Under the pieces are notes generated by a model, which was not told the DNA's origin, made no database searches, and saw only the letters and a program-made list of their open reading frames with translations. Positions 5,868-50,727 of a stretch of 64,000 nucleotides of DNA are shown one piece after another; positions within the stretch are counted from its first letter, which is position 1, and each line of letters opens with the position of its first letter. Source of the stretch: Gammaproteobacteria bacterium (GTDB lineage: Bacteria > Pseudomonadota > Gammaproteobacteria > UBA4575); NCBI GenBank assembly GCA_014075255.1, contig CP046178.1:1504894-1568893 (forward strand), in the 5' to 3' direction. The translations under genes and the position numbers were made by a program.

Positions 5868-7920
<2,053 letters not shown>

Positions 7921-24348: not shown

Positions 24349-25281
24349 TTAAGCTACTAGAGTTGCATAAGAAAGCCATGAATCATCGTAGTTATGACGG
24401 CCATACACAGAATCGAAATACATTGATTGAAGTTTTGTTGTAATTTCGCCTCGGACACCTTCACCTATCATGCGATTATCTAGTTCTCGAATGGGAGTGA
24501 CTTCAGCCGCAGTTCCAGTAAAAAACGCTTCGTCAGCGGTATACATTTCATCGCGAGTGATACGTTTTTCTATGACAGGAATATCGAGCAAACCTGCAAG
24601 TGTGATAATTGTTTTACGCGTAATTCCATCTAATGCTGAGGTTAGCTCTGGTGTATACAATTTACCTTTCTTAACGATAAATACATTTTCACCACTACCT
24701 TCAGCCACAAAGCCATCAACATCTAACAATAACGCTTCATCATAACCGTCATGCAATGCTTCGTTTAATGCCAGCATAGAGTTCACGTAATTGCCATTTA
24801 ATTTTGCTTTGCACATTGCAACATTTACATGGTGTCGTGAGTAGGATGATGTTTTTACTCGTATGCCATTCTTCATATTTTCTTCGCCTAAATATGATCC
24901 CCACTCCCATGCAGCAACAATGCAATGTGTCTTCAAATTATCCGCACGCAACCCCATACCCTCTGAACCGTAAAAACACATCGGCCGCATATATCCGTAG
25001 CTCAATTCATTTTTATTAATTACATCAATCTGCGCTTGATTGATTTCTTCTGCTGAAAATGGCATTGGCATGCCAATTATTTTTGCTGAATTGAAAAGTC
25101 TTTCGGTATGATCGTACAATCTAAATATTGCCGTCCCTTGTTCTGCCTTATAAGCACGAACACCTTCAAACACACCTGCTCCATAATGCAGGGTATGCGT
25201 AAGTACATGTGTAGTCGCTTCGCGCCACGGCACAAATTCACCGTCATACCAAATCCATCCATCTCTATCAGACATCAACAC
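24349..25281 (-). CDS. ilvE: branched-chain amino acid aminotransferase
   Basis: Full-length similarity to E. coli IlvE (HYGxxVFEG, EGxGEN, TAAEITP). Confidence 0.9.
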   Translation of the reverse strand: MLMSDRDGWIWYDGEFVPWREATTHVLTHTLHYGAGVFEGVRAYKAEQGTAIFRLYDHTERLFNSAKIIGMPMPFSAEEINQAQIDVINKNELSYGYMRPMCFYGSEGMGLRADNLKTHCIVAAWEWGSYLGEENMKNGIRVKTSSYSRHHVNVAMCKAKLNGNYVNSMLALNEALHDGYDEALLLDVDGFVAEGSGENVFIVKKGKLYTPELTSALDGITRKTIITLAGLLDIPVIEKRITRDEMYTADEAFFTGTAAEVTPIRELDNRMIGEGVRGEITTKLQSMYFDSVYGRHNYDDSWLSYATLVA

Positions 25282-25359: not shown

Positions 25360-28298
25360 TTAAGTAGCATCTGAGTGTAACAGACTTGCCCAATTATTTT
25401 GCACCGCGATTCGCTCATTTTCAAATACATTCATACCCACAGTTTCAGGCAATAACCTTAAGCTTAGTTGATGCAAATACTTACGGTATTTTAGGTAAAT
25501 TTCTTTCAGCTCTTGTACATTCTGCTGCCCCAACAAATCTGCCTGCGCGCAGGCATCAAGAATTCTTATATTATCAGTATGCTCACAAATTTGAGGATGC
25601 TTATCAGAATAACTCAGCACAAGAAATTGCACGATAAACTCAATATCAATTACCCCTCCCACATCTTTCTTAATGTTAAAATCAGCTTCTGTGTTAACTG
25701 GATTCGCATCCAGCATTTTGTTTCGCATTTCTATAATTGAAGACTGAACGTCTCCAACTACGCGTGATTGACACAACACTCGTTGCCTGATTCTTAAAAA
25801 CTCTTTACTGAGCTTCTGACTGCTCGTTATGGCGCGTGCACGCACTAATGCCTGATGCTCCCACATCCAAGCATCATTAATTAGATAATTTTCGTATGCA
25901 TGCATCGAACTAACAATTGATCCCGACTCTCCATGCGGACGTAGTCGCAAGTCAGTATCAAAAACTTTGCCACCTGCTGTAACTGTAGACAAACTATGAA
26001 TAGACTTTTGCACAAGACGAGTAAAAAAAATATCGTTATGTATTTTTTTACTGCCTGCAGCTCCATCTCCACTTGTCTCACAATTTTCTCCCATACTGTT
26101 GTGCAAAAATACAATATCTAAATCTGAACCATAGCCCAGCTCCAAACCACCCAACTTTCCGTATTCAACAATTAACACCTCTGGCACGTAAGTCTGCTCA
26201 CCCAATACGCATTGTGGTTCACCATGCTGTTCTAGCAACATATTATAGGAATACTGGACTGCACTATTGATACAGGTTTCGGCTAACCATGACAAATGAT
26301 CACTTACTTTCATGATTGGATAATTTTCTACAATATCTGCAGCAGCTATTTGGATCATTTGCGTATGCTTAAATTCGCGCAAAGCTTCCATGTATTTTTC
26401 CAAGTCGGAATCGAAATTCACTAAACTTGCGGTTAGTTGTTGCTGCATTTCGAGCATGCCCGGTGGCTCGTATGCATCATCCATACTTAGTATTTCGTCA
26501 AGTAAAATAGGATGGGTTGCAAGATATTGCGAGACCCATGGGCTTGCATGTATAAGCTCAAAGAGTTTTGAAATCTTGTTTTTATTCTCAATCAGCAAAG
26601 AAATATAAGTAGAACGCTGTACAATTTTTTTCAATATATTTAAAAACCGATTAAAAATTGGCAACGGCTCTTCAAATTGCAAAAGTTGTTGCAAAAATAT
26701 TGGCATGAAGCTATCTAACCTAGTTCTTGCTACCGGAATAAGCTTTTTCACAAGACTGCTTACGGCAAAGTTATTCAGCTGCTCATAAATAAACTTTGCG
26801 TCACTAAAGTAATTTTTTGTTAAAACATTTAAACAATGCTGTTCATCGTCAATCTGAAGCCATACCTTTTCTAACTCTTCTTCATCATGTCCATCTTCAT
26901 TTGCAGATTCGTCGTTTCTAATAAAGATTGATATACAGTATTTACTATATTTGTATACTTTTTATACTCAACATAAAATGCTGGCCAATCTTGCACCCCC
27001 ATTAAATATGCATAGTGCGCCTGCTGTTGACGCTCAAACGGTAGCGCATGGATTTGCTGATCTTCACGAAGCTGCAAACCATTCTCCGCCTTACGTAAAA
27101 ATAAATAAGCATCTGTCAAATTCTCAGTCCACTCAGCACTAAGCAAGCTCTGCTCTTGCAACTGCTGCAAAGCTTTGAGTGTAGAACGAATGCGTAATGA
27201 CGAATCTTTCCCTCCATAGATAAGTTGAAACATCTGCGCAATAAATTCAATTTCACGGATACCGCCAAAACCAATCTTCAAATTTTCTTTTGCTGCATCT
27301 TGACGTGCTTTTGCATCCACCAAAGCCTTCATTTCTCGCAATGACTGTATCGTCCCATAATCAAGATAACGTCGATATATGAAGGGAGTGACTTCTTGCA
27401 GGAAATGTTCGCCAACTTGACGATCTCCAGCAATCACACGCGCTTTCATCCACGCATAACGCTCCCAGTCACGCCCATGAGCCTGAAAGTATTGATCAAT
27501 AGATAGAAAACTAGGAACAAGTGTTCCAGAATTTCCAAATGGCCTTAGTCTTGTATCAACACGAAACACAAACCCATCCTGAGTTGGCTCAGAAAGAATT
27601 TTTATAAATAACTGAACGACTTTAAGGTAAAACTCTATCGCCTTACCTGCTTGCTCTTGCCCAACTACTTGTTGATTATTTTCATCGTTATCAGAATAGG
27701 CAAAAACAATATCGATATCTGATGAAAAATTAAGTTCGCCTCCACCTAATTTACCTAACGCAAAAATAACAATGTTTTGCGGTAAAGTTTTTACAAAATC
27801 TTTGACAAGCGATTGTGACTGAAGCCAATCAAAACACCATTGCAATGTTTCTTGAACACAAATTTCTGCAAAAAAGCTTAATTCACTTAGTGTTTGTTGT
27901 ACTGTCGTGTTTTGCTGAAGATCCCGCCAAGCAATTCTTGCAAAGCAAGTTGCTCTTATCTGTCGTAATAGTTGTTGCAACCCCTCAACACTATTAGCCT
28001 CTGAAATGGCCTCACTCAACAAGTGACGATATACTTCTATATCGTAATCAACATGCAGTTCTCCACTGGCCAATAACTTTTTTAGCCACCCAGGATGGGA
28101 AATACAAACACGCTTTATAAAGGGACTCGCATACCAAACTGCGAACAGCTCGTCTCTATTCTCAAGAATATTTGAATCATTTTTGAGATCAACAAGAACG
28201 GTATCAAAATCTTGTTGAAACTTAGATATTGCGGTTTTAGGCGCAGGCTTAAGCATTGGTATATAACAACCTTCGAGACATCTATTCAAACCAGTCAA
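25360..28298 (-). pseudogene. glnE: glutamine synthetase adenylyltransferase glnE, disrupted by a frameshift (or sequencing error)
   Basis: The N-terminal half (26871..28298; KLGGGELNFSSDIDIVF) and C-terminal half (25360..26751; KLGGLELGYGSDLDIVF) are both intact, in adjacent frames, and collinear with E. coli GlnE. The downstream frame stays open across the junction. It keeps the acidic linker homology (NDESANEDGHDEEE). The switch maps to about 26910..26925. Confidence 0.7.
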
Positions 28299-28349
28299 TT
28301 AGCCAGCCTGTTGGCCAACCTGTGCGATTTAGATATTCTAAATGCTAAT

Positions 28350-28368
28350 GAGAATAGGTATCATTTAT
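28350..28368 (+). promoter_or_regulatory. putative Fur box upstream of the Fe3+ ABC transporter
   Basis: gagaataggtatcatttat matches about 13/19 positions of the GATAATGATAATCATTATC consensus. It lies about 40 nt upstream of fbpA. Confidence 0.35.
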
Positions 28369-28408
28369 ATTAAGTTTATCCATAATTATAGTATGGATTA
28401 TATCAACA

Positions 28409-29452
28409 ATGATCGGTGCATATATGAATACAAATATTCTACCTAAAATTTACTCAACCATCGCTCTAGGAATGTTGCTGTTAGCTGCAGTCGCCAGCGC
28501 CGCTGAAGTTAATATTTATTCTGCGAGAAAAGAAGATCTCATCAAACCCATTCTTGAAAAGTTTGAGCAAGACACTGACATTAAAGTTAATCTCATTACA
28601 GGAAAAGCGGATGCACTATTGCAGCGTTTAATTAGTGAAGGTAAAAACAGCCCCGCAGATATTTTAATTACCACAGATGCGGGTCGTCTATACCGTGCAA
28701 AAAATGCAAAGGTCTTACAAAAAATTGACTCCGAAACGTTAACAATCTCGATCCCAGAACAATATCGAGATCCAGAGGGCTACTGGTTTGGCCTAACACT
28801 ACGTGCACGGCCAATCGTTTACGCTACAGATCGTGTGCAGCCCGATCAACTCTCAACTTATGAAGCATTAGTTAATCTGAAATGGAAACAAAAAATTTGT
28901 ATACGATCCTCGGACAACATATATAACCAATCACTCGTCGCTTCTTTAATTGCGCAGTTAGGCGAAGAAGATACCTTTAAATGGACTGAATCATTTGTAA
29001 AAAACTTTGCTCGGCCGCCTCAAGGTGGAGATCGCGATCAAATTAAAGCCATTGCAGCAGGACAGTGTGATATCGCATTAGTAAACAATTATTATCTTGG
29101 CAATATGCTGACCTCTAAAAATGAATCGGAAGCTGAAGCAGCTAAAAAGGTAAAAATATTTTGGCCAAACCAAAAAGATAGAGGCACACATGTCAATATT
29201 AGCGGTGCCGCCATAACCGCTTCATCTAAAAACAAGGAAGCTGCCCTCCAATTACTAGAATTCTTAGTAAGTGATGCCGCACAACAATGGTATGCAGAAA
29301 AAAATCTTGAGTACCCTATCAAACCAGGGATACAACCTAGTGAGATCTTACAGTCATGGGGTGAATTTAAGGCTGATTCATTAAACTTGCATCATCTCGG
29401 CGAACATAATGCGCAAGCCGTGATGATTATGGATCGTGCCAAATGGAAATGA
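28409..29452 (+). CDS. fbpA: Fe(3+) ABC transporter periplasmic substrate-binding protein
   Basis: Signal peptide. Similarity to H. influenzae FbpA (VNIYS, SPADIL, ALVNNYY). Confidence 0.75.
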   Translation: MIGAYMNTNILPKIYSTIALGMLLLAAVASAAEVNIYSARKEDLIKPILEKFEQDTDIKVNLITGKADALLQRLISEGKNSPADILITTDAGRLYRAKNAKVLQKIDSETLTISIPEQYRDPEGYWFGLTLRARPIVYATDRVQPDQLSTYEALVNLKWKQKICIRSSDNIYNQSLVASLIAQLGEEDTFKWTESFVKNFARPPQGGDRDQIKAIAAGQCDIALVNNYYLGNMLTSKNESEAEAAKKVKIFWPNQKDRGTHVNISGAAITASSKNKEAALQLLEFLVSDAAQQWYAEKNLEYPIKPGIQPSEILQSWGEFKADSLNLHHLGEHNAQAVMIMDRAKWK

Positions 29453-32436: not shown

Positions 32437-32808
32437 ATGAGACTTAGTAAATCCATAATTTACCTTTTAATACTTTCATTTATTTTTGTACAAATTTCAC
32501 CCGCTTTTGCTGGCATCGTTGGAACGGATAGTTATCTATCTGAGCAAACTATCCAGCAAGACCGTGAAGACTTACGCGCACTTATGTCACGTGACGAGGT
32601 TCGTTTACTACTAGAAACCAATGGCCTGACTATGGAGCAAGCACAAGCGCGTGTGGATTCTCTGACAGATAAAGAAGTAAGCCAGATGGCGAAGAAATTT
32701 GATGAATTACCTGCAGCAGGTGACGCAGCAGTGGTTGTTCTTGTGATCGCTTTAGTTGTATTGGTCCTTGAACTTGCGGGTATTACCGATATCTTTACCG
32801 GCATTTGA
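32437..32808 (+). CDS. PA2779-family-like small secreted protein with hydrophobic C-terminal tail
   Basis: Signal peptide ending AFA, then a ~70-aa soluble segment, a conserved ELPAAG motif and a 30-aa hydrophobic tail. Paralogous to 50316..50677. TGA stop overlaps the TTG start of the next gene. Confidence 0.6.
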   Translation: MRLSKSIIYLLILSFIFVQISPAFAGIVGTDSYLSEQTIQQDREDLRALMSRDEVRLLLETNGLTMEQAQARVDSLTDKEVSQMAKKFDELPAAGDAAVVVLVIALVVLVLELAGITDIFTGI

Positions 32809-33815
32809 TCGCCCGTAAAATATTTTTCATACTTAATAATGCCCGCTGTATTGCGGGCATTTTTTTGTTCTTAATCTCGCTTTCTGCATGCGTTGCGCCT
32901 CAAACTAAGCAATTACAAATAGAGCGCCCGCACGACCTACCGACCAAAGCGTTTATAAAAAACGTACCCTTTTACCCGCAACAGCAATTTCATTGCGGCC
33001 CTTCTAGCTTAGCCATGGCAATGAATTTTTATAGTAAAAATGTAACGCCTGAAAATCTTGCTAAAGATGTGTTCACTCCAGGCCGCAAAGGCAGTTTTCA
33101 AGCAGAAATGAAAGCAGCGGTACGCAAACGCGGAATGATTGCATATGAGCTCACTCCTGAACTGGTCTATTTACTCGCCGAAGTTTCGGTGGGACACCCA
33201 GTTATTATTTTACAAAACAAATCTATTAAATATTACCCTGTCTGGCATTACGCTTTAGTTATTGGTTATGACTTAAATAAAAAACAAATTTATTTACACT
33301 CAGGCACAAATAAAAATTACGCGGTATCAATGAGTGTGTTTGAATTTACCTGGAAACGTTCGAAACGCTGGGCGATGGCAGTGCTGCCAACAGACACATT
33401 ACCCAATGACCGCAATCTTATAAATGTATTACAAGCGGCAGTAGACTTAGAAGAAGTAGGCCAAGTCGAAGCCGCAAATCAAACGTATCAAACCATTACA
33501 AAACGTTGGCCAGATAGTTTAGTTGCCGTAATGGGTACTGCGAATACGCATTTAACGTTAGACAATCCTGATAACGCTACTAAATTCTATTTGCGTGCTA
33601 TTGAATTGGAACCGCAACGGGCAGATATCTATAACAATCTCGCCTATAGTCTACAAGCACAATCTTGTTACCAGTCATCATTACGTTCAATTAACTGTGC
33701 AATTTCTTTAGATCCCAGTAGTGCTGAATTCCTGGACTCGCATCGCGAAATCACTCAGTCAACCAACAAATCAACCCTAAAGTCTTGCCCGAGAATCCGT
33801 TGTGGCAGCCCATAA
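32805..33815 (+). CDS. PA2778-family-like C39 cysteine peptidase / TPR-repeat lipoprotein
   Basis: Lipobox LSAC. Papain-like C39 active-site context QQFHCGPSSLAMAM plus a downstream His (VWHYAL). C-terminal TPR-like repeats. TTG start is coupled to the upstream gene. Confidence 0.65.
   Translation: MIARKIFFILNNARCIAGIFLFLISLSACVAPQTKQLQIERPHDLPTKAFIKNVPFYPQQQFHCGPSSLAMAMNFYSKNVTPENLAKDVFTPGRKGSFQAEMKAAVRKRGMIAYELTPELVYLLAEVSVGHPVIILQNKSIKYYPVWHYALVIGYDLNKKQIYLHSGTNKNYAVSMSVFEFTWKRSKRWAMAVLPTDTLPNDRNLINVLQAAVDLEEVGQVEAANQTYQTITKRWPDSLVAVMGTANTHLTLDNPDNATKFYLRAIELEPQRADIYNNLAYSLQAQSCYQSSLRSINCAISLDPSSAEFLDSHREITQSTNKSTLKSCPRIRCGSP
32838..32866 (+). terminator. GC-rich stem-loop plus T-run embedded in the signal-peptide codons of the peptidase gene (possible attenuator)
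   Basis: aatgcccgc-tgtatt-gcgggcat followed by ttttttt. It encodes NARCIAGIF of the lipoprotein signal peptide. Confidence 0.4.
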
Positions 33816-35929: not shown

Positions 35930-36568
35930 ATGGCGGAATTACTCACAGGTAAAGCACTAGAAGAGGTCATAGAGCGCAAAAACAAAATGCGTCGCGAAGC
36001 ATATGACCGCCGTGCTGCACAAGAAAATAAAGAAGAAGTTAGCGCAAAAGCATGTGCAAATTTTATGACACTTCCTGAATACCAAAAATCTAATGTTGCT
36101 ATGTGGTACATCGATTGCCGCTCAGAGACTCGCACTAAAGATGAATTAATTGCAGAAGTTAATAAAGGGGAAAAGAAAATTATTGTTCCTTATTGCACTG
36201 AAGACGAAAATGGCGATAACAAGCTTGGCCTGTGGTGGATGGAAAGCTTGGAAGAAATGGTTGTTGGCAAATGGGACATCCTAGAGCCACCTAAAGAATT
36301 ATGGGGCAACCCAGAAAAAGAAGTAACTCCTGAAGAAATCGACATCATTATGGTTCCAGGCACTGGCTTTGATAAGAAAGGTGGTCGCATGGGTAATGGT
36401 CAAGGCTATTACGATCGTTTACTCGAGCAACTTCGCGCAGATTGTCCTCTAGTAGCACTATGTTATGAGTCACAAATGTTTGATGAAATTCTTGTGGCGC
36501 CTCATGATGTATTCATGGACAAAGTGGTTACTGAAGATGCTGTGTACGAAGGCATCGGTCGAGGTTAA
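35930..36568 (+). CDS. 5-formyltetrahydrofolate cyclo-ligase (MTHFS) family protein
   Basis: Conserved VPGTGFDKKGGRMGNGQGYYDRLL block. 212 aa. Confidence 0.7.
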   Translation: MAELLTGKALEEVIERKNKMRREAYDRRAAQENKEEVSAKACANFMTLPEYQKSNVAMWYIDCRSETRTKDELIAEVNKGEKKIIVPYCTEDENGDNKLGLWWMESLEEMVVGKWDILEPPKELWGNPEKEVTPEEIDIIMVPGTGFDKKGGRMGNGQGYYDRLLEQLRADCPLVALCYESQMFDEILVAPHDVFMDKVVTEDAVYEGIGRG

Positions 36569-36573
36569 TTATT

Positions 36574-37497
36574 ATGGCTGCAAAAATTGATGATACTTAC
36601 GCAGAAGCGTTTAAAAGTCTCTATACAGAATTCTTAATCACTGCACGTGACCGCAAATGGCTAGACCACGCGGTTAATGCTGCAACGGGCAACGCATCAA
36701 GTTCAATCTTGTGTGATTGTGAAGCTGGAATGGATCGCTATGTCGGTCCTGGTGGTGATGAAAGTTTTGAGACTCCTGACGGTCGCCCAGGGGCTATCGT
36801 ACAACTTCACATTCCACGCTTTCGCAAAGATCGTGTAAAAGCGTTAGAAAAATCTGCATTAGTGCGTATCAGTCAAAACGTTATGACTTGCCCTACCGCC
36901 TCATGTTTCAACTTGGTTGATTCAGAAGAGTATTACCATATGGGTCGTAAAGTGGCTTACTTTGGTAACGGTTACCAGAAACGTATCGAACGATTTGGTC
37001 GCAAGATGTGGTGGATTCCAACCCTAGGTGGAGAATTCATTTTAGATCGTCGTCTTGGTTATGCAGATGGGCTCATGGGCGGCAACCTTTGGTTCTTCGG
37101 TGACAGTGTGGATTCTGCACTACTTGCTGCAGAAAAAGGCGTGGAAGCGATCCTACCAATGCCGGGTGTTATCTCAACCTTCCCTGGCGGTATTGCAAGC
37201 AGTGGTTCAAAAGCTGGAAGTAACTACGACTTTACCATTGCCAGCACGTACGAAAAATTCTGCCCAATGTTACAAGATGATCCTACGGTTGAAGCTGGAT
37301 TACCAGAAGGCGTTAACTGTGTAATGGAAATCATCATGAATGGCCAAGGTATGCAACCGATTATTGATGCCACGCAAGCTGCGATTAAAGCTTCGGTAGA
37401 CACACCAGGACTGATTATGATTTCTGCTGGCAACTACAATGGAAAGTTAGGTAAGAGCTTTATCTATCTAGATCCAAGTAAACAGCCTGCTGAATAA
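36574..37497 (+). CDS. formylmethanofuran:tetrahydromethanopterin formyltransferase (Ftr/FhcD) family protein
   Basis: N-terminal IDDTYAEAF...FLITA and ...ETPDGRPGAIVQLHIP match the Ftr family. 307 aa. Confidence 0.7.
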   Translation: MAAKIDDTYAEAFKSLYTEFLITARDRKWLDHAVNAATGNASSSILCDCEAGMDRYVGPGGDESFETPDGRPGAIVQLHIPRFRKDRVKALEKSALVRISQNVMTCPTASCFNLVDSEEYYHMGRKVAYFGNGYQKRIERFGRKMWWIPTLGGEFILDRRLGYADGLMGGNLWFFGDSVDSALLAAEKGVEAILPMPGVISTFPGGIASSGSKAGSNYDFTIASTYEKFCPMLQDDPTVEAGLPEGVNCVMEIIMNGQGMQPIIDATQAAIKASVDTPGLIMISAGNYNGKLGKSFIYLDPSKQPAE

Positions 37498-37516
37498 TTA
37501 AGTAGTACATGTTTAA

Positions 37517-37548
37517 AAAAAGCCGCTACTTCTAGCGGCTTTTTTTTT
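37517..37548 (+). terminator. intrinsic terminator after the Ftr-like gene
   Basis: aaaaaaa-agccgcta-cttc-tagcggct-ttttttttt, a bidirectional-looking hairpin. Confidence 0.6.
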
Positions 37549-37616
37549 GCGTAACCTAATTTAGGTATCACTTCCCCCACCTATCCTAAACACAAGTTCT
37601 AAAGCATAATATTCAA

Positions 37617-38507
37617 ATGACTACAGAATTTTCCAAACAATATGAAAGGACTCCTGGCGGCGCAATCCTTATGAATGGAAGCGTGGTTGCCGAAGCTGTT
37701 CAAAGTAAAATAGCCAAGCAGCTAGCACAATCTCCTAACGCAAAGGTAACGCTTGCCACCGTTCTAATAGGAGACGATCCCGCTAGCAAACTTTATGTGG
37801 GCATGAAAGAAAAACGTGCAGCCGCCATTGGCATTCAATCCAAGCATGTTGAACTCGCTGGCAATATATCCATGTCACAAGCCTGTGAAGAAATTATTAA
37901 GCTTGCGAATGATCCAAGCGTGCATGGAATCTTGATTCAGTTACCGTTACCCAAACAACTCGACACACATAAAATTATCGATTTATTGCCGCCTGAAAAA
38001 GATGTCGATGGTTTAAGTGAAAATAATCTGGGCAAACTAATTCGTGGTGTACCTGGATTAGTGCCCTGCACCCCTCTTGGCGTGATGCGCATACTCGAAC
38101 ACTATGAAATAGAAACCAGTGGCAAGCGCGCCGTGGTTATCGGACGCTCTACTTTAGTTGGCCTCCCTCAAGTTTTATTACTAGGCCGTAAAGGCACAGA
38201 TGCCACGGTAACTTTGGCTCATTCTCGTAGTGGTAATATTGGCAAATTTACAAAATCAGCAGACATTGTGATTGCCGCAGCCGGAATTGCCCATCTTGTT
38301 AAACAGGAACACATCAAACCAGGCGCTACTGTGATTGATGTAGGCGTCACTCGAACCGATGAAGGTATTCGCGGTGATGTAGATTTTGATGCCGTGCAAT
38401 CAATAGCGGGTGCCATCACACCTATGCCAGGTGGCACAGGACCTATGACGGTAGCTTGTTTACTAGAAAACACTTTGTATGCGGCCAAATTACAAAACAC
38501 CTTATAA
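37617..38507 (+). CDS. folD: bifunctional methylene-H4F dehydrogenase / methenyl-H4F cyclohydrolase
   Basis: Full-length FolD similarity (LIGDDPAS, HGILIQLPLP, VPCTPLG, VVIGRS, PMPGGTGPMT). Confidence 0.9.
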   Translation: MTTEFSKQYERTPGGAILMNGSVVAEAVQSKIAKQLAQSPNAKVTLATVLIGDDPASKLYVGMKEKRAAAIGIQSKHVELAGNISMSQACEEIIKLANDPSVHGILIQLPLPKQLDTHKIIDLLPPEKDVDGLSENNLGKLIRGVPGLVPCTPLGVMRILEHYEIETSGKRAVVIGRSTLVGLPQVLLLGRKGTDATVTLAHSRSGNIGKFTKSADIVIAAAGIAHLVKQEHIKPGATVIDVGVTRTDEGIRGDVDFDAVQSIAGAITPMPGGTGPMTVACLLENTLYAAKLQNTL

Positions 38508-38749
38508 GCAATGCTCACTGCAAATTGATACAACACATTCGCTAAAACCACTTTTATATCCCTATAATACCCAACTCGTAATATGCAAATGGCTTGAGCC
38601 ACTTTAGGGCTTATGGCAAGATGCTTGACCTTTCGCGCGACTTGTTTGCACGTAAATATATTGGCAGCTCTGGCCATCTCGAATAAAAACTATATATAGC
38701 GGAGCTACTTCTAAACTAAAAATTAATATCACTTATAAAGGTTCTCTTA

Positions 38750-40015
38750 ATGCCTGGACAAAAACTGTCTTATCCTGGAAAAAATTATTTATTCTGCCCA
38801 GGCCCAACACACATACCACAAGCAGTACAAAACGCAATGATCGTTCCTCAAGAAGATCACCGTGCACCAGATTTTCCGGAACTCGTTAAGCCTTTATTAC
38901 GCGACGTTAAAAAGATTTTCAAAACCACTAAAGGCACATGCTTTTTATTCCCAGCAACCGGTACAGCGGGTTGGGAAATTGCCTTAGCAAACACCATGTC
39001 ACCAGGTGACAAAATCTTAACTACACGTTTTGGTCAGTTCAGCCACTTATGGTACGACCTGGCTTGCCGCATCGGCTTGGAAGTTGATCTAATTGAAACT
39101 CCATGGGGTGAAGGTGTTCCTGTTGAGAAGTTTAAGAAAATTCTCCTAGCAGATAAGAATCATGAAATTAAAGCTGTTGTTTGTTGCCATAACGAAACTG
39201 CAACGGGTGTGACCAGTGATATTGGTGCAGTTGGCAAAATGCTAAAGCAAATTAAGCATCCTGCATTATTAATGGTGGACTGTGTAAGTTCTGTTGCCAG
39301 TATCGATTTCCAAATGGATAAATGGGGCGTTGATATCGCGGTAAGTGGTTCTCAGAAAGGCTTCATGCTTCCAGCAGGCATGGCTATCTTGGCATTCAGC
39401 CCACGCGCATTAGCAAAACGTAAATCTGCAAAATGTGCACGCTGTTTCTTGGATATTCAAGACCACATTAATACCAACAAAGATGGTTTCTTCCCTTACA
39501 CTCCATCTGTACCCATGTTACGTGGACTGCGTGCGTCGATTGATTTGATTTTAGGCGAAGGTCTTGATAACTGTCACAAACGTCATTACCGTCTTGCAGA
39601 AGGTGTGCGTCTTGCGGTTAAAGCATGGGGCTTAAAAACTTGTGCAAAATCTTCTAAGTTGAATTCAGATACCGTAACTGCAATATTGGTTCCTGAAAAC
39701 AAAAATGCGAATGAAGTAATCCATATTGCATACCATAAGTACAACATTTCATTAGGTGCTGGCTTATCTAAAGTTGCGGGTAAGGTTTTCCGCATCGGTC
39801 ACCTTGGCGATAACAACGAAGCGCGTATGATGGCAGCTTTAGGTACTGTAGAAATGGCACTGCTAGACGCAGGCATTAAAATTAAGCCAGGAAGTGGCGT
39901 TGCTGCTGCAGGTGAGTACTACCGCAAGACCGGCAAGAAAATTAAAAAGTTTGCTGCTCCGAAAGCAGCACCTAAGAAAAAAGCACCGGCTAAAAGAAAA
40001 GCCCCCAAGAAATAA
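38750..40015 (+). CDS. sga: serine--glyoxylate aminotransferase (class V aminotransferase) with K/A/P-rich C-terminal tail
   Basis: Class V fold with the PLP-lysine context SGSQKG. Serine-cycle gene neighbourhood. About 25 extra C-terminal residues: KKIKKFAAPKAAPKKKAPAKRKAPKK. Confidence 0.85.
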   Translation: MPGQKLSYPGKNYLFCPGPTHIPQAVQNAMIVPQEDHRAPDFPELVKPLLRDVKKIFKTTKGTCFLFPATGTAGWEIALANTMSPGDKILTTRFGQFSHLWYDLACRIGLEVDLIETPWGEGVPVEKFKKILLADKNHEIKAVVCCHNETATGVTSDIGAVGKMLKQIKHPALLMVDCVSSVASIDFQMDKWGVDIAVSGSQKGFMLPAGMAILAFSPRALAKRKSAKCARCFLDIQDHINTNKDGFFPYTPSVPMLRGLRASIDLILGEGLDNCHKRHYRLAEGVRLAVKAWGLKTCAKSSKLNSDTVTAILVPENKNANEVIHIAYHKYNISLGAGLSKVAGKVFRIGHLGDNNEARMMAALGTVEMALLDAGIKIKPGSGVAAAGEYYRKTGKKIKKFAAPKAAPKKKAPAKRKAPKK

Positions 40016-40060
40016 ATAACGAATAGAAAATAAATAGATAACAAATAGAAGGTACATACT

Positions 40061-41002
40061 ATGAGTTTTACACAACCTACACCAGCAAGATCAAGAGTAC
40101 AGCGATGTGAACTTGCTGTTCCTGCATCCAGCGTTAAAATGATTGAAAAATCAGCCGACTGCGATGCAGACTTCGTATTTTTAGATTTAGAAGATGCTGT
40201 TGCTCCTGGAGACAAAGTACAAGCACGCAAGAATGCAATCGAAGCCGTAAATGGTATCGACTGGGCAGGCAAAGGAAAAACCATTGTAGTGCGTATTAAC
40301 GGTCTTGATACTCATTTCATGTATCGTGATGTCATTGATCTTGTTGAACAAGCGGGTAGTAAGCTAGATACGATTTTTATTCCAAAAGTAGGTGACCCAG
40401 CAGACGTATACATGGTGGATGCACTTCTTACTCAAATAGAAGAAGCAAAAGGGTTTAAAAACAAAATAGCCATAGAAGCAATCATTGAAACCGCACTAGG
40501 CATGGCCAATGTAGAAGCCATTGCACAATCTAGCCCACGCCTAGAAGCCTTGCACTTTGGTGTGGCGGACTATTCAGCAAGTACTCGTGCACGTACGGTC
40601 AATATCGGTGGCTTAAATCCTGATTATCCTGGCGATCAATGGCATTCCGCTATTTCACGCATGGTGGTTGCATGTCGTGCATACGGATTGCGTCCTATTG
40701 ATGGTCCATTTGGTGATATCAAGGATCCTGAAGGCTACATGCTTGCATGCCGTCGTGGCGCAGCATTAGGTATTGAAGGTAAGTGGGCCATCCACCCATC
40801 ACAAATCGAAATGGCGAATGAGGTATTTTCTCCACCAGAAGCTGAAGTAGCCAAGGCGCATCGAATTCTTGAAGAACTCGAAAAAGCAGCTAAAGAAGGT
40901 AAAGGCGCGGCAACATTAGATGGCAAAATGATCGATGCGGCTTCTGCAAAAATGGCAGAAAATGTTGTTAGAGCAGCTGAGGCCATTGCTGCGAAGTCAT
41001 AA
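40061..41002 (+). CDS. mcl: malyl-CoA lyase (HpcH/CitE family)
   Basis: CitE/HpcH-like aldolase fold. 313 aa. Sits between sga and mtkAB. Confidence 0.8.
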   Translation: MSFTQPTPARSRVQRCELAVPASSVKMIEKSADCDADFVFLDLEDAVAPGDKVQARKNAIEAVNGIDWAGKGKTIVVRINGLDTHFMYRDVIDLVEQAGSKLDTIFIPKVGDPADVYMVDALLTQIEEAKGFKNKIAIEAIIETALGMANVEAIAQSSPRLEALHFGVADYSASTRARTVNIGGLNPDYPGDQWHSAISRMVVACRAYGLRPIDGPFGDIKDPEGYMLACRRGAALGIEGKWAIHPSQIEMANEVFSPPEAEVAKAHRILEELEKAAKEGKGAATLDGKMIDAASAKMAENVVRAAEAIAAKS

Positions 41003-41048
41003 AGTTAGAATTACCTAACTTTTATTGTTGTTATTTTTTATGTCCTAG

Positions 41049-41080
41049 GTGCCCGCATTGCGGGCACTTTTGTTTCTTCC
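41049..41080 (+). terminator. intrinsic terminator after mcl
   Basis: gtgcccgc-att-gcgggcac followed by ttttgtttctt. Confidence 0.6.
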
Positions 41081-41274
41081 TTTTAGAATTTCTATTTTTG
41101 CCCATCCTTATTGCTCATGAATTGAGCAATTACCCAACAAGAGAGTTTGTCCTTGGGCGTCAGAATAGGCTATAAAAGTCGTTTGGTCTGCCGAAATTAC
41201 AACGATCTATAAGGCGGCCTCCAAGATTAAGCCAATAAGATAAAAACGAATCATTTTCTCGGGAGGGAATTTTA

Positions 41275-42450
41275 GTGGATATCCATGAGTATCAAGCAAA
41301 AGAAATATTATCCGAGTGCGGCGTAGGCATAGCAGCAGGTGGACTAGCATATAGCCCTGAACAAGCAGTTTACCGAGCCAAAGAAATTGGTGGCAGCAAA
41401 TGGGCCATTAAAGCACAAATACACTCTGGTGCTCGCGGCAAAGCTGGCGGTATCAAGCTATGCAGCAATGACGAAGAAATTTGGAATGCAGCGGATGAAC
41501 TATTAGGCAAACGCTTGGTAACTCACCAAACTGGCCCTGCCGGCAAAGTGGTATATCGACTTTACGTCGAGCAAGCTACGGATATTTTAAAAGAACTTTA
41601 TTTAGCACTGGTACTTGATCGCGATAAGCAACGTGTTGTTTTTGTAACCTCAACTGAAGGTGGTATGGATATCGAAGAAGTGGCTGCAACCAAGCCTGAA
41701 GCGATTCACAAATTAGAAGTTGAGCCTGCAGTAGGTCTGCGTGACTTTCAAGCACGCGAACTTGCTTTCGCATTAGGCATAAAGCCTGAACTTACGAGCC
41801 AAGCCGTTCACACAATCAAAGGTGCATATCGTGCATTCCGTGATTACGATGCGACTATGGTTGAAATCAACCCTATGGTCATTACTAAAGATGATCGCGT
41901 ATTAGCACTCGATGCAAAAATGGGTTTTGACGACAACGCATTATTCCGCCGTCCACGGATTGCAGAACTGCGTGATAAATCGCAAGAAGATCCTCGCGAA
42001 ACAGCGGCGTCAGATCGAGGCTTAAGTTATGTAGGCCTAGATGGCGATATCGGTTGCATGATCAATGGTGCCGGTCTTGCTATGGCCACCATGGACATGA
42101 TTAAGCATAAAGGCGGCGAACCGGCCAACTTCCTAGATATTGGTGGTGGCGCTTCACCAGAACGTGTTACCAGTGCATTCAAATTAGTACTTGATGATGA
42201 AAAGGTAAAAGCAATATTAGTTAATATTTTTGCTGGTATTAATCGTTGCGATTGGATCGCCGAAGGTGTTGTACAAGCGTTTGAAAAATTAGAGGTGAAA
42301 GTACCGGTTATCGTACGACTTTCTGGCACCAATGTTGAAAAAGGTATGCAAATACTAAAAGACAGCGGTCAACCACTCATTACAGCGGATACTTTAGACG
42401 AAGCCGCACAAAAAGCGGTAGCCGAACGCAACCGTGTTGCAAAAGGCTAG
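41275..42450 (+). CDS. mtkA: malate--CoA ligase beta subunit (succinyl-CoA synthetase beta-like)
   Basis: ATP-grasp N-terminal [12 protein letters not shown]. Paired with an alpha subunit in the serine-cycle cluster. Confidence 0.85.
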
Positions 42451-42461
42451 GGAGAAATAAA

Positions 42462-43352
42462 ATGACAATAATGATTGATGAAAATACTAAAGTTCTTGTT
42501 CAAGGTTTTACTGGCAAAATCGGAACCTTTCACGCTGAAGAAATGATTGAGTACGGTACCAAAGTGGTGGGTGGTGTTACTCCTGGAAAAGGTGGTCAAA
42601 CACACATGGGATTACCTGTGTTTAATACAGTTAAAGATGCCGTAGCAAGCACCGGTGCCGAAGCTAGTATCGTATTTGTTCCAGGTGGCTATGCTGCAGA
42701 TGGAATTATGGAAGCTGCCGATGGAGGGATTAAAACTTGTGTTTCCATCACGGATGGAATTCCCGCTCAAGACATGATGCGTGTTAAACGTTATATGTAT
42801 CGCTACAAAAAAGAAGATCGTATGCGCCTAACCGGCCCTAACTGTGCTGGTAGCATCAGCCCAGGAAAATGTTTATTGGGCATTATGCCTGGCCATATTT
42901 ATGAAACCGGAAATGTGGGAGTAGTTGCGCGTTCTGGCACACTCGGCTATGAAGCTGCATCACAAATGAAAGCATTAGGCATCGGTATTAGCACCAGTAT
43001 TGGTATCGGTGGCGACCCCATCAACGGAAGTTCACACAAGGATATCTTAGAGTTATTTGAAGCGGATCCTGAAACCAAAGCGGTGATGATGATTGGTGAA
43101 ATTGGTGGCCCACAAGAAGCGGAAGCTGCCGAATACTTTAAAGAGCATATGACCAAACCTTTGGTTGCTTATATTGCAGGTTTAACTGCACCGAAAGGTC
43201 GTCGCATGGGTCACGCAGGCGCGATAGTTTCAGGCAAAGGTGAGAGTGCTGCGGAGAAAGTAGAAATGCTAGAAGAAGCAGGTGTTATTGTTGCGCCAAA
43301 TCCATCTGAGCTAGGCTCAACGATGGAAAGAGTAATGAAAGACATCTCGTAG
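42462..43352 (+). CDS. mtkB: malate--CoA ligase alpha subunit
   Basis: CoA-binding Rossmann fold with the phosphohistidine loop GHAGAIVSG. 296 aa. Confidence 0.85.
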   Translation: MTIMIDENTKVLVQGFTGKIGTFHAEEMIEYGTKVVGGVTPGKGGQTHMGLPVFNTVKDAVASTGAEASIVFVPGGYAADGIMEAADGGIKTCVSITDGIPAQDMMRVKRYMYRYKKEDRMRLTGPNCAGSISPGKCLLGIMPGHIYETGNVGVVARSGTLGYEAASQMKALGIGISTSIGIGGDPINGSSHKDILELFEADPETKAVMMIGEIGGPQEAEAAEYFKEHMTKPLVAYIAGLTAPKGRRMGHAGAIVSGKGESAAEKVEMLEEAGVIVAPNPSELGSTMERVMKDIS

Positions 43353-43377
43353 TTGAAGCTTGTAGGAGAGAATAATA

Positions 43378-44349
43378 ATGAGCAAATTAAAAGTAATCGT
43401 TTCACGCGCCTGGCCTGAAGAAGTTCAAGCCACGTTACGAGAAAAATATGACGTAACGTTGAATGAAAATGACGTGGCCATGTCCAAAGATGAAATGAAA
43501 GAAGCATTAGCTAACTGTGATGCATTTTTACCAACTGTAACTGATCCAGTAGATGCAGAAGTACTCAGTGCAGAACCATTACGCGCAAAGTTCATTGGTA
43601 ACTTTGGTGTTGGTTTTAACCACATCGATTTAGATGCTGCCAAAGCACGCGGCTTAACCGTTACTAATACACCTGAAGTATTAACTGCTTGTACTGCGGA
43701 TATTGCAATGACTTTGATGTTAACGGTTGCACGTCGCACCAGTGAAGGCGAAAGAGAATTACGCTCTAAGTCTTGGGCTGGATGGCGCCCTACTCACTTG
43801 TTAGCCACCAAAGTCACTGGCAAGACATTAGGTTTAATTGGCATGGGACGTATTGCACAAGCCATGGCACAACGCGCGCATCATGGCTTCGGTATGAAAA
43901 TCATTTTTTCTGATCCTTACCCACCTCCTGCTGACGTAATTAAGAAGTACAATGCGCAACAAGTAGACTCGATAGATGAAGTATTAGCCAATTCTGATTT
44001 TGTTTCTATTCACTGCCCAGGCGGAAAAGATACTTACCATCTATTAAATAAAGAAAGCCTTGCGAAAATGAAGCCTTCTGCATTTTTAATCAACTCTGCT
44101 CGTGGAGATGTAATTGATAATGATGCACTCATCGAAGCTCTTAAGAGTGGTGTAATTGCAGGTGCAGGCCTTGATGTTTTTGAAGGAGAACCCGCGTTAG
44201 ATGAGCGTTTTCTAGAACTTGAGAATGCTGTTCTACTTCCGCACTTAGGTAGTGCCTCTATCGAGACACGCGTAGCCATGGGCAATCGAGTGCTTGAGAA
44301 CCTAGAGGCATTTGAAGCAGGCGAAACTCCACGAGATAAGCTCGTATAA
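43378..44349 (+). CDS. hprA: hydroxypyruvate reductase / D-isomer-specific 2-hydroxyacid dehydrogenase
   Basis: GxGxxG motif LGLIGMGRIAQ. D-2-hydroxyacid dehydrogenase catalytic residues. Serine-cycle context. Confidence 0.75.
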   Translation: MSKLKVIVSRAWPEEVQATLREKYDVTLNENDVAMSKDEMKEALANCDAFLPTVTDPVDAEVLSAEPLRAKFIGNFGVGFNHIDLDAAKARGLTVTNTPEVLTACTADIAMTLMLTVARRTSEGERELRSKSWAGWRPTHLLATKVTGKTLGLIGMGRIAQAMAQRAHHGFGMKIIFSDPYPPPADVIKKYNAQQVDSIDEVLANSDFVSIHCPGGKDTYHLLNKESLAKMKPSAFLINSARGDVIDNDALIEALKSGVIAGAGLDVFEGEPALDERFLELENAVLLPHLGSASIETRVAMGNRVLENLEAFEAGETPRDKLV

Positions 44350-44423
44350 GCCAGTAGATAGGCCATCATCGGCCAATCTATGCCCATTCGGGCATATCAA
44401 AATGGCTAGATCAGTCCTATTAT

Positions 44424-44450
44424 GAAGAGGTCCTTTTTTGGACCTCTTTT
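44424..44450 (+). terminator. intrinsic terminator after hprA
   Basis: agaggtcc-tttttt-ggacctct followed by tttt. A smaller hairpin tatgccc-attc-gggcata lies at 44379..44396. Confidence 0.6.
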
Positions 44451-44487
44451 ACTATGTGTAGCTTAAAATTATTAATCTAAAACAAGT

Positions 44488-47265
44488 ATGACTGACAACG
44501 ACTCCCCGCTTTCCTGGACGCAACTTACCAAGGTTGCCACCGGCAGTATGATTATCAATCCTGCGGCATCCTATGAAGATGAATTAGTAGAGTTACTTTA
44601 TCAACAACTACTAAGTGTTATTCGAGCGCGTCAACCTGATATCGAAGCTTATTTTAATGGTCAGCAAGATATTCGCGACTGCCCTACTTCAAAAATTCTA
44701 TATGTCCTGCAAACCTATGGAATATGGTTCCAACTATTAAGCATTGCTGAACAAAATGCCATGGTGCAGCAACGTCGACAAATTGAAAAAGAATATAATC
44801 GTGATCGTGTACCTGGCACTTTTGCGTATTCCTTCTCAAGTGCTGAGCAAAAAGGTATTTCCGCAGAAGATATTCAAACCTTACTAAATAATAGTTTAAT
44901 CAGCCCTGTAATCACAGCGCACCCTACAGAAGCGAAACGTGTAACGGTATTAGAAGTACATCGTCGAATCTATGTATTACTTAAACAGTTAGAACTCGAA
45001 CGCTGGACCCCTAGAGAAAGAGATGACTTAGCTAATGAACTTCGCAACGAAATTGATTTACTTTGGTTAACGGGCGAAATTCGTTTAGAAAAGCCCAGTG
45101 TTGGACAAGAAGTAACTTGGGGCTTGCACTTTTTTGTTGAATCATTATTTGATGGTGTAAAAGAACTGTATGTAGAATTGGATCGCGCATTAGAACAAGC
45201 CTATCCTCATTATGAATTTAAAGTGCCTCCTATTTTCCGTTTTGGATCATGGATTGGCGGAGACCGTGATGGAAACCCAAATGTCACACATAAAGTTACT
45301 GCTTCCGCAATACAAACGAATGCTAAAGCATGCATTAAACGTTATCGGCAAGATATTTTTGAGCTTGGTTCTAAATTAAGTATTGCTAATCATTCAGTCA
45401 ACGTTTCAGAAAACTTTACTAAAGTTTTACAAGAAAAACTTGGAATGCTGGGCGAAACAGAAGCCTATTCACAACGCAATCCAGGTGAAATATTTAGGCA
45501 GTACTTGCGTTACATGTTGGCCAGAATTGATGCGACCTTGAAGCATATTAATGATCCAAGTAAGTCTAAAATTGCCTATCATCGTGCAGCAGATTTATCG
45601 GCGGACCTCTATCTTCTGGAACAAGGACTATCCGATGCCAAATGCGGACATTTAAGTGATGCAGATGTACGACCTCTGCGACACATGGTGGACACCTTTG
45701 GATTTAGAACGGTTAGCTTAGACATTCGAGAAAATACTACGGTAGTTAATAGTGTGCTAGCAGAGATATGGCAAGCATTGCACCAAAAAACTCATATAGA
45801 TTTACCTGATCCAACATCTGAAGAATGGAATAACTGGATTGTTAATCAATTAACGCAACCTCTACGTGTAGTTCCTCGTTTCGATAATTTATCCAAACAA
45901 GCGCAATCTACGTTGGCCATGCTCGAACAAGTTAAGTATTTCCAAAACAAACTAGATCGAAAAGCATTTGGTGTATGCGTATTAAGTATGACGCAAACCG
46001 CAACGGATGTGCTGGGTGTATATCTATTAGCAAAGTATGTAGGACTATTTACTGATTCTGATGGACTTGAAGCATGTCGCATTATGATTGTGCCACTGCT
46101 AGAGACTATTGATGATCTTGAAAACGGCCCAGCTGTATTAGAAGAACTTTTAGAACATGCATTTGTGCGACGCACGATTAAAAAATTCGGTGGCTCACAA
46201 GAGGTTATGGTGGGTTACTCAGATTCTAACAAAGATGGCGGCTTTCTTACCTCTAACTGGATTATCAGCAAAGCTCAATCAGAAATACATGCAGCTGGTG
46301 AAAAACATAAAGTACCGATTTCATTTTTCCATGGTCGTGGCGGCTCGGTGAGTCGTGGCGGTGCGCCGAGTGGTCGTGCGATTGCCGCGCAACCGGTTGG
46401 CACTATTGATGGCCGTATGCGAGTTACCGAACAAGGTGAAGTGGTTTCATATAAATACGCAAACCGTGGCTTTGCTGAAGAACAAATGGAAATTTTGGCT
46501 TCCAGTGTCATCACGCACTCACTTATGTCCGGCAAAGACCCTGCATACCAAAGCAATTCAGAATTAGATGAAGTGCTAGAAGCGCTTTCTGGAACCGCCT
46601 ATGTCGCGTATCGAAAATTAATTGAGCACCCGGGTTTAGTCGACTTTTATCAGCAAGCCAGTCCAGTTGAAGAATTAACCTTAATGAAAATTGGTTCGCG
46701 CCCTGCGCGACGCTTTGGTGCAGCCTCTCTAGATGATCTACGCGCTATTCCTTGGGTATTTGCATGGACGCAAAATAGACTGCTAGTCCCTGGCTGGTAT
46801 GGAGTAGGTAGCAGCTTAGAGCAAATCATCAAGATACGTGGTGAACTCGGCACAGATCTCCTTAATAAAATGTACGAGAAACACCCGCTGTTTAAATTAA
46901 TATTAGACGGTGCTGAAAAAACACTTTTACTAGTAGATATGGAAGTTGCTGAGAAGTATTGCGAACTGGTTACAAACGAAGAACATCGAACTCAGATATT
47001 CTCTGACATAAAAGAAGAATATGAACTGACGAAGAATAATATATTAAAAATTACTGGCGAAGACCAGCTCTGTGATCGCTTCCCTAATTTTAAACGCCAC
47101 TTCTATCGACGCATCGAATCACTCAATCAAGTGGGTATTGAACAGGTAGAACTAGTGAAGAAATTTCGAAGCGAAGGCGATGAAATCCAAAATATAGAAG
47201 ACGTGTTAGTTCCACTATTGTTATCCATTAACTGCGTAGCAGCGGGGATAGGCAGTACTGGTTAA
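44488..47265 (+). CDS. ppc: phosphoenolpyruvate carboxylase
   Basis: VTAHPTE and GRGGSVSRGG motifs. 925 aa. Confidence 0.9.
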   Translation: MTDNDSPLSWTQLTKVATGSMIINPAASYEDELVELLYQQLLSVIRARQPDIEAYFNGQQDIRDCPTSKILYVLQTYGIWFQLLSIAEQNAMVQQRRQIEKEYNRDRVPGTFAYSFSSAEQKGISAEDIQTLLNNSLISPVITAHPTEAKRVTVLEVHRRIYVLLKQLELERWTPRERDDLANELRNEIDLLWLTGEIRLEKPSVGQEVTWGLHFFVESLFDGVKELYVELDRALEQAYPHYEFKVPPIFRFGSWIGGDRDGNPNVTHKVTASAIQTNAKACIKRYRQDIFELGSKLSIANHSVNVSENFTKVLQEKLGMLGETEAYSQRNPGEIFRQYLRYMLARIDATLKHINDPSKSKIAYHRAADLSADLYLLEQGLSDAKCGHLSDADVRPLRHMVDTFGFRTVSLDIRENTTVVNSVLAEIWQALHQKTHIDLPDPTSEEWNNWIVNQLTQPLRVVPRFDNLSKQAQSTLAMLEQVKYFQNKLDRKAFGVCVLSMTQTATDVLGVYLLAKYVGLFTDSDGLEACRIMIVPLLETIDDLENGPAVLEELLEHAFVRRTIKKFGGSQEVMVGYSDSNKDGGFLTSNWIISKAQSEIHAAGEKHKVPISFFHGRGGSVSRGGAPSGRAIAAQPVGTIDGRMRVTEQGEVVSYKYANRGFAEEQMEILASSVITHSLMSGKDPAYQSNSELDEVLEALSGTAYVAYRKLIEHPGLVDFYQQASPVEELTLMKIGSRPARRFGAASLDDLRAIPWVFAWTQNRLLVPGWYGVGSSLEQIIKIRGELGTDLLNKMYEKHPLFKLILDGAEKTLLLVDMEVAEKYCELVTNEEHRTQIFSDIKEEYELTKNNILKITGEDQLCDRFPNFKRHFYRRIESLNQVGIEQVELVKKFRSEGDEIQNIEDVLVPLLLSINCVAAGIGSTG

Positions 47266-47305
47266 ATTTTAAAAACTAAAAATAATAAGACCTAAAATAA
47301 TAAAC

Positions 47306-48163
47306 ATGAAAAAACTTTTATACCATTTTGATACCGATGCTATACCTAGCGTATTTGACTCAGTCGTCGCTTACGATGGTGGCGCCGATCATGTAACTCA
47401 ACTAGGTGGCGTCAATGAAGAAAATTGTGGCGGCCTCGTAGAAGGTGCAATCTATACACGTGCCCCAAAAGACAAAAAGAATACTGCAATTTTTGTAGGG
47501 GGCAGTGATCTAATTGAAGGTCAAAGGCTTTTTCAACTAGTACATGATCAGTTTTTTCAAAACTTCCGTGTATCGGTTATGTTAGACAGCAATGGTTGCA
47601 ATACCACCTCAGCAGCAGGCGTTGCGCTGTTGAGCAAAGCAACTAATTTGCAAGACAAAACTGCAGTAGTGCTCGCTGGCACCGGTCCGGTAGGGCAGCG
47701 TGCAGCAGTGTTACTCGCTAAAAGTGGCGCTAAGGTTCGGCTTACCTCCCGCAAACAGTCCCGCTCAGTGGAAGCCTGTGATGAAATGCGCGAGCGCTTT
47801 GGCGTTGTAATGACGCCTATGCAAGCCAGTGACGATGAATCCATACAAGCTGCAATGGATGGCGCCCATGTCGTATTTGGCGCAGCAAAAGCGGGAATTC
47901 AATTACTCAATGCTAAACAGTGGCAAGATCATCCTACTTTAGAACTGATTGCGGATGTAGGCACCTCTAAAATTCTAGGATTTGAAGGCATTGATGTGAT
48001 GGATAAAGATACTGAACGCCATGGCAAGCGAGTGTTTGGTGGCATCGGCATTGGAGCACTAAAACTAAAACTGCACCGTGCATGCATTGCTAAACTATTC
48101 GAATCAAATGATATTGCATTGGATGCAGAAGCTATTTATAAAATAGCTCAGAGCATGGCTTAA
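47306..48163 (+). CDS. mtdA: NAD(P)-dependent methylene-tetrahydromethanopterin/methylene-H4F dehydrogenase
   Basis: N-terminal LLYHFDTDAIPSVFDSVVAYDGGADHV...IYTR...TAIFVGG closely resembles Methylobacterium MtdA. 285 aa. Confidence 0.8.
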   Translation: MKKLLYHFDTDAIPSVFDSVVAYDGGADHVTQLGGVNEENCGGLVEGAIYTRAPKDKKNTAIFVGGSDLIEGQRLFQLVHDQFFQNFRVSVMLDSNGCNTTSAAGVALLSKATNLQDKTAVVLAGTGPVGQRAAVLLAKSGAKVRLTSRKQSRSVEACDEMRERFGVVMTPMQASDDESIQAAMDGAHVVFGAAKAGIQLLNAKQWQDHPTLELIADVGTSKILGFEGIDVMDKDTERHGKRVFGGIGIGALKLKLHRACIAKLFESNDIALDAEAIYKIAQSMA

Positions 48164-50677: not shown

Positions 50678-50727
50678 GCTCACCTTTTAATGTAAAAATA
50701 CTTGCGGACCGCAAAGTACACCAATTC

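Follow-up and report, generated by a model that had tools for sequence, protein, structure and literature searches.

Two neighbouring open reading frames (ORFs) in the ORF list of a 64-kb bacterial window (the whole stretch of DNA analysed here) read, on the minus strand, as the N- and C-terminal halves of a single glnE, the gene for the bifunctional adenylyltransferase that acts on glutamine synthetase (GS). Are they two genuine genes, one gene broken by mutation in the organism itself, or one gene broken by an error in its published sequence? A sequence-only reading of this locus had decided against two genuine genes, placed a single-nucleotide frame switch between the halves, and named recent pseudogenisation or a sequencing error as its cause.

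A single-nucleotide deletion interrupts glnE at a domain boundary

The N-half ORF spans 26871..28298 and encodes 475 aa when read from a TTG, or 461 aa when started at ATG 28256, whereas the C-half ORF (25360..26751) encodes 463 aa from a GTG (Table 1). ATG 28256 is the favoured start, as Prodigal-type calls and the GenBank record QMU61596.1 use the 461-aa form and relatives align from query residue 13-15. An exact look-up of the 475-aa form returned no match, which we attribute to gene callers starting at ATG 28256; an exact look-up of the PGAP 524-aa form of the C half was also without a match.

Three-frame translation placed the stop of the N-half ORF, a TAG, at 26871..26873 and showed that the C-half frame is indeed open across this stop, as had been claimed, extending upstream to 26961. 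Within the resulting zone of overlap, in which both frames are open, the N frame ends in ...NTVYQSLLETTNLQMKMDMMKKS* and the -1 frame reads ...IRNDESANEDGHDEEELEKVWLQIDDEQ... Base 26916 is common to the codons GAA (E, 26918..26916) and AAC (N, 26916..26914), and linking ...YQSLLE to NDESANEDGHDEEELEKVWLQ... takes one more base, which puts the shift at a run of A residues inside the interval 26910..26925 proposed beforehand. Repair by one A added to this run yields a protein of 965 aa (979 aa from the TTG). The run reads AAA in the window (TTAGAAACGACG; hereafter A3), AAAA in an intact allele described below (TTAGAAAACGACG; A4) and, among intact relatives, AAAAAA in the closest (TTAAAAAACGAT).

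Table 1. Features of the glnE locus and its immediate neighbours, in window coordinates
Feature	Coordinates	Strand	Description
glnE 5' part	26871..28256	-	N-terminal adenylyl-removase (AT-N) half, 461 aa from ATG 28256; first possible start TTG 28298
Out-of-frame tail of glnE 5' part	26874..26915	-	Last 14 codons, TTNLQMKMDMMKKS, then TAG
Nucleotidyltransferase motif G-X11-D-X-D, N domain	27711..27755	-	GKLGGGELNFSSDID
Frameshift site	26915..26917	-	A-run one A shorter than in the intact allele
Two-frame open zone	26874..26961	-	Any frame switch is confined to this zone
glnE 3' part, -1 frame	25360..26916	-	518 codons; acidic Q1 linker, regulatory region and C-terminal adenylyltransferase (AT-C)
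Nucleotidyltransferase motif G-X11-D-X-D, C domain	26116..26160	-	GKLGGLELGYGSDLD
Downstream neighbour	24349..25281	-	ilvE-like class IV aminotransferase; S/T SNP at 25056 marks the lineage of one specimen
Divergent upstream neighbour	28409..29452	+	Iron-type ABC transporter component, periplasmic solute-binding protein; sets the limit of the glnE promoter region 28257..28408

The repaired protein matched the NCBIfam GlnE equivalog profile NF008292 (PRK11072) with 976.7 bits where the cutoff is 487, and did so in one stretch that reaches from position 21 to position 944 of the 946 in the profile. It contains the tandem modules of the family, with two copies each of the Pfam domains GlnE (PF03710) and GlnD_UR_UTase (PF08335); the catalytic G-X11-D-X-D is kept in both modules, and the PDB chains 1v4a (AT-N) and 3k7d (AT-C) match the N and C halves, respectively. 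These profile, domain and structure matches to GlnE are far above chance and, judged from its sequence, the window copy is a disrupted allele of a GlnE family member, since the one unbroken ORF of about 950 codons expected of GlnE is missing here and present both in P0004, the protein of the intact allele, and in 16/16 relatives. The proposal that the two ORFs are halves of one GS adenylyltransferase is thus upheld by the full-length profile match of the repair and by the single ORF in relatives.

Aligned with GlnE of E. coli MG1655, the repaired protein showed 38% identity over 937 aligned positions, and the shift mapped between G437 and D438 of the E. coli enzyme. The break point therefore falls where the AT-N440 domain ends and the acidic Q1 linker, DDESETQEE, begins with its first residue. 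The same check against MG1655 GlnE confirmed the homology to the E. coli linker (DDESETQEE...WRELWQ) that had been pointed out from the junction.

Relatives carry one unbroken glnE under purifying selection

We scanned one genome per GTDB species, which returned 44 loci, and compared the 16 closest complete ones with the window. Every one of these 16 relatives (Thiotrichales or Gammaproteobacteria MAGs) has a single unbroken glnE ORF of 955-1000 codons, with 55-83% amino-acid identity. A split shared by close relatives, which the sequence-only reading had entertained as a sign of a functional arrangement, was found in none of them, and its view that these are not two genuine genes gains from the fused relatives and the 1-nt deletion in the A-run alike. 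The closest relatives read TTAAAAAAC at the position of TTAGAAAC in the window, and across the junction the repaired protein aligns with them free of gaps (SLLENDESANEDGH versus SLLKNDESVKEDGH). At the DNA level the window reads TTATTAGA-AACGACGAATC against TTATTAAAAAACGATGAATC in the loci L003 and L004, leaving a 1-nt gap within the A-run.

For both halves dN/dS against the relatives was 0.07-0.21, and the same comparison revealed no further stops or indels in either half. The low dN/dS and the lack of any other lesion indicate that glnE has been under purifying selection for essentially its whole history.

A separate observation concerns the labelling of one of these relatives. L003 (CAXMUG010000083.1) is titled 'uncultured Mycobacterium sp.', and its glnE is 83% identical to that of the low-GC gammaproteobacterial window; its junction is nearly the same as that of L004, a Thiotrichales MAG, and L003 is probably mis-binned or the MAG mislabelled.

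Broken and intact alleles in a near-clonal sponge symbiont

The window belongs to MAG 4, an uncultured gammaproteobacterial symbiont of Mycale hentscheli, and carries the broken A3 allele. According to Data Set S2 of Storey et al. 2020 (PMC7157528), MAG 4 is a single contig of 2,650,019 bp with 39.55% GC, placed in GTDB o__UBA4575. It came from MH-PAT, a specimen of this New Zealand sponge, and was assembled with MaSuRCA as a hybrid of Illumina PE250/PE150 and PacBio Sequel data (PMC7157528). Two other M. hentscheli specimens, Myc1 and Myc2, were sequenced by Rust et al. 2020 (PMC7196800) on a HiSeq2500 (2x250) and assembled with metaSPAdes, giving the deposits JAAHTG and JAAHTH. Allele presence was read from assembly consensus sequences such as these, from which frequencies and within-host coexistence are inferred.

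Besides the MaSuRCA hybrid MAG of the window, the A3 allele lies on a Logan contig of SRR10987117 matching the window at 100% across 7.3 kb, on the metaSPAdes contigs JAAHTH010005957 and JAAHTG010000002 (648 kb), and on further contigs known by their size class, one of 50-200 kb and two of 0.2-1 Mb. In all, it occurs in four or more assemblies produced by two laboratories with three assemblers from two independent read sets, the data of the second laboratory being JAAHTG, JAAHTH and SRR10987117 (HiSeq2500 2x250). On JAAHTH010005957.1 (L002:2843-2938, about window 27835..27848) there is also a 10-N scaffold gap flanked by low-quality poly-G/poly-C sequence; it splits the N half of glnE again (182 + 232 aa calls) and is an artefact of assembly rather than a second mutation.

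The intact A4 allele encodes P0004, a 965-aa protein exactly equal to the repaired protein and in the same 90% cluster. Two contigs encode P0004, one from the Logan assembly of SRR10987118 (L047, 96.5 kb) and one from an ENA re-assembly of specimen S3 of Storey et al. (L048; SAMN12718693). Both read TTAGAAAACGACG at the A-run, and A4 is thereby backed by two read sets other than those carrying A3. Compared with the window over 22.9 kb, L047 has 2 substitutions and 1 gap, and L048 has 8 substitutions, 5 of them G-rich contig-end noise, and the same gap; neither contig shows any indel there other than the one in glnE. The sequence-only reading had foreseen that resequencing might restore a single frame, and this is the case in the assemblies of SRR10987118 and S3 and not in those with A3. 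In JGI metagenomes the junction sequence had 0 matches, be it with the A3 or the A4 tract.

Since A3 and A4 each recur across read sets, and so short a run is not a hotspot of Illumina error, both alleles are probably real in nature, and the persistence of an otherwise identical intact allele implies that the deletion is very recent. The glnE of the window is a segregating allele rather than a fixed pseudogene, and the alleles probably segregate within single hosts. A private non-synonymous SNP in ilvE (25056-A, Ser/Thr) is common to JAAHTG (A3) and the Logan assembly of SRR10987118 (A4); this one shared SNP suggests that the two derive from one specimen in which both alleles coexist. A synonymous SNP in hldE (21174-G, GGA/GGG) is found in 3/3 contigs from the A4 read sets, namely L047, L048 and a third contig, from S3 (L052), and hints that the A4 contigs may be related by descent rather than by recurrent slippage.

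Beyond these two positions, 21174 and 25056, the population contigs share no SNP. The specimens otherwise agree at 99.96% or more of positions across 22.9 kb, which is extremely low diversity for a symbiont from different specimens and two laboratories.

Alternative explanations for the split

MaSuRCA builds its consensus from Illumina super-reads. The window nevertheless stems from a hybrid long-read/short-read metagenome assembly, the difference is one of homopolymer length next to an otherwise identical intact sequence, and one read set seemingly yields A3 by metaSPAdes and A4 by Logan; all this would fit a consensus or assembly error, with AAAA as the true sequence everywhere and glnE intact in the organism of the window. 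Against this, A3 recurs across laboratories and assemblers, a run of 3 versus 4 bases is not error-prone for Illumina, and the finding of a single indel in 22.9 kb against L047 or L048 means that the hybrid assembly is not indel-noisy here. An error is therefore unlikely, and of the two causes first proposed it is the recent knockout that stands, as a segregating and not a fixed lesion. The halves could also be genuine products, made as separate adenylyl-removase and adenylyltransferase proteins, with the split kept by selection: the lesion sits precisely on the boundary between domain and linker, the catalytic motifs of both halves are intact, the A3 allele is found in several specimens and, according to PMC9249168, citing Jaggi et al. 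1997, AT-N and AT-C of E. coli GlnE both keep their catalytic activity when separated from each other, and adenylyltransferases (ATs) truncated to 'unidirectional' forms work in vivo. We consider such a functional split quite improbable, given that it is absent in all 16 relatives and that an identical intact allele elsewhere leaves no time for adaptation. In addition, a start at GTG 26751, behind a poor SD, would leave out the Q1 linker together with some 30 residues of the regulatory region, as far as the equivalent of E. coli K493, and an unregulated AT would shut GS off, which is likely deleterious.

Full-length GlnE could be restored from A3 by programmed -1 ribosomal frameshifting or transcriptional slippage, the shift needed being -1 and a U-AAA-AAG-like TAT AAA AAG (26966..26958) lying right where the two-frame overlap opens. 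A shift there would, however, swap the conserved 14-residue YTNIVNTVYQSLLE for VYKYSKYCISIFIR, the lesion itself (TTA GAA ACG) has no slippery heptamer, A3 is too short for transcriptional slippage, and the frameshift is missing in all 16 relatives and in the sister allele, which together make recoding scarcely credible. Reversible slippage of the A-run, switching glnE on and off as a phase-variable (contingency) locus, would account for both tract lengths in one near-clonal population, where they apparently share one SNP background (25056-A). Known contingency tracts have about 7 or more repeats. With a tract of only 3 versus 4 A the slippage rate should be near background, and the linked synonymous SNP 21174 in two A4 contigs favours descent over frequent switching, so that we hold phase variation to be very unlikely.

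Predicted consequences of the A3 allele

We consider it likely that this is an ordinary bifunctional glnE in which a real and very recent loss of one A (AAAA to AAA) segregates with the intact allele in a near-clonal symbiont, the outcome being loss of glnE function. Translation from ATG 28256 would then yield a 461-aa product made up of the adenylyl-removase (AR) domain and a nonsense tail, the native sequence stopping three residues short of the AT-N440 boundary before the 14 nonsense residues begin. The C-terminal regulatory and adenylyltransferase half would be untranslated or poorly translated. Its frame holds no ATG, GTG or TTG before GTG 26751, which is 120 nt past the N-half stop, corresponds to E. 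coli K493 and has only a weak SD-like AAGCAG (AAGCAG-tctt) ahead of it; the next ATG in the C frame is equivalent to E. coli M508. A promoter and terminator scan found promoter-like sites at the locus no more than expected by chance.

As the C half has neither a good start nor a good ribosome-binding site, and as the locus carries no signal for recoding, it is probable that this half is not made, and the A3 deletion most likely abolishes the C-terminal adenylylating activity. Full loss of AT activity is less than certain, since truncated AT-C is active when artificially expressed (PMC9249168, citing Jaggi et al. 1997). Cells with A3 would be unable to adenylylate, and so to switch off, GS, which would be constitutively active. 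GlnE modifies Tyr397 of GlnA under the control of PII/PII-UMP and glutamine, and the window contains neither glnA nor glnB/K nor glnD. Such a glnE defect would probably be tolerated, and plausibly near-neutral, in the steady, ammonium-supplied interior of a sponge; the M. hentscheli microbiome includes ammonia and nitrite oxidisers (PMC7157528). It is also conceivable, if doubtful, that the glnE knockout stands at intermediate frequency by descent, both across several hosts and inside single ones, with GS shut-off selected against or under balancing selection, or with the AR-only product keeping a role. If this selection reading were true, regulatory streamlining would have been caught as it happens.

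Annotation of the locus and the wider window

In GenBank the N half is QMU61596.1 (26871..28256, 461 aa, 'hypothetical protein GKR92_07755') and the C half QMU61595.1 (25360..26934, 524 aa), the latter named as the bifunctional enzyme and given a forced ATA start (MSIFIRNDES...). Neither is flagged as a frameshifted pseudogene; the two should be one frameshifted glnE, and the importance of the case lies mostly in annotation. The frameshifted glnE calls for a corrected annotation and is a minor curiosity of population genetics, and no new mechanism or system. It does offer a small, clean case in which a host-associated bacterium has a regulatory gene knocked out and the intact allele is still in circulation, and read-level data would let the frequencies of GS-regulation knockouts be measured across sponge individuals.

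A partial survey of adjacent same-strand ORF pairs in the window found no other split genes, the pairs belonging to distinct families or having no matches. To the left of the divergent intergenic region between glnE and the ABC-transporter gene (about 28300..28400) most genes are on the minus strand, and to its right most are on the plus strand; the GC skew flips sign at about 28-32 kb and is negative again past 48 kb, following the gene strand and carrying no mark of a replication origin.

Elsewhere in the window, positions 35930..48163 (+) hold a contiguous C1-metabolism cluster with a serine-cycle/H4MPT gene set. It comprises genes for 5-formyl-THF cyclo-ligase, an FTR-family formyltransferase, FolD, a serine-glyoxylate-type aminotransferase, a malyl-CoA lyase-like HpcH/HpaI protein, malate thiokinase/succinyl-CoA-ligase-like α and β subunits, a hydroxypyruvate-reductase-like 2-hydroxyacid dehydrogenase, PEP carboxylase and an MtdA-like methylene-H4MPT dehydrogenase. 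This gene content suggests that the UBA4575 sponge symbiont may be a methylotroph. A TPP riboswitch (RF00059, 62.3 bits) at 7800..7920 (-) lies directly upstream of thiC (5868..7760, -; ThiC radical-SAM), an ordinary arrangement. Two copies of a DUF6627 small protein were found, at 32437..33815 (+) and 50316..50759 (-), the first adjoining a Peptidase_C39-like/TPR protein downstream.

Comparison with known systems

Two classes of known system were considered for the split and set aside. Recoding of the dnaX or IS-transposase type involves an X XXY YYZ heptamer and a conserved shift, which this locus does not have, and the 3/4-A run falls short of the long tracts (about 7 units or more) of phase-variable contingency loci.

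The closest counterpart of the gene itself is E. coli GlnE (b3053, 946 aa; 1V4A, 3K7D), with which it shares the two-domain layout, both G-X11-D-X-D motifs, an acidic Q1 linker (NDESANEDG... in the window, DDESETQEE... in E. coli) and hldE close by on the same strand. Unlike the E. coli gene, the window frame is broken by a 1-nt deletion at the equivalent of G437/D438, whereas the intact sister allele encoding P0004 is normal.

Single-domain GlnE constructs (AT-N440, AT-C) are said to have been deliberately expressed by Jaggi et al. in 1997. Such engineered constructs are described in PMC9249168, together with 'unidirectional adenylyltransferases' in Azospirillum and Azorhizobium. The N product of the window ends within 3 residues of the AT-N440 boundary and so resembles a natural AT-N truncation; it differs from the constructs in that its truncation arose by mutation and that the C half has neither an engineered nor an evident natural start.

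Finally, the locus can be set beside the frameshift pseudogenes and loss-of-function polymorphisms of host-associated bacteria. While it departs from such cases in that the 64-kb window has a high coding density and no sign of genome-wide pseudogenisation, it is like them in its single homopolymer indel with no further decay, in the intact allele that is still extant and in the host-restricted life of its bearer.
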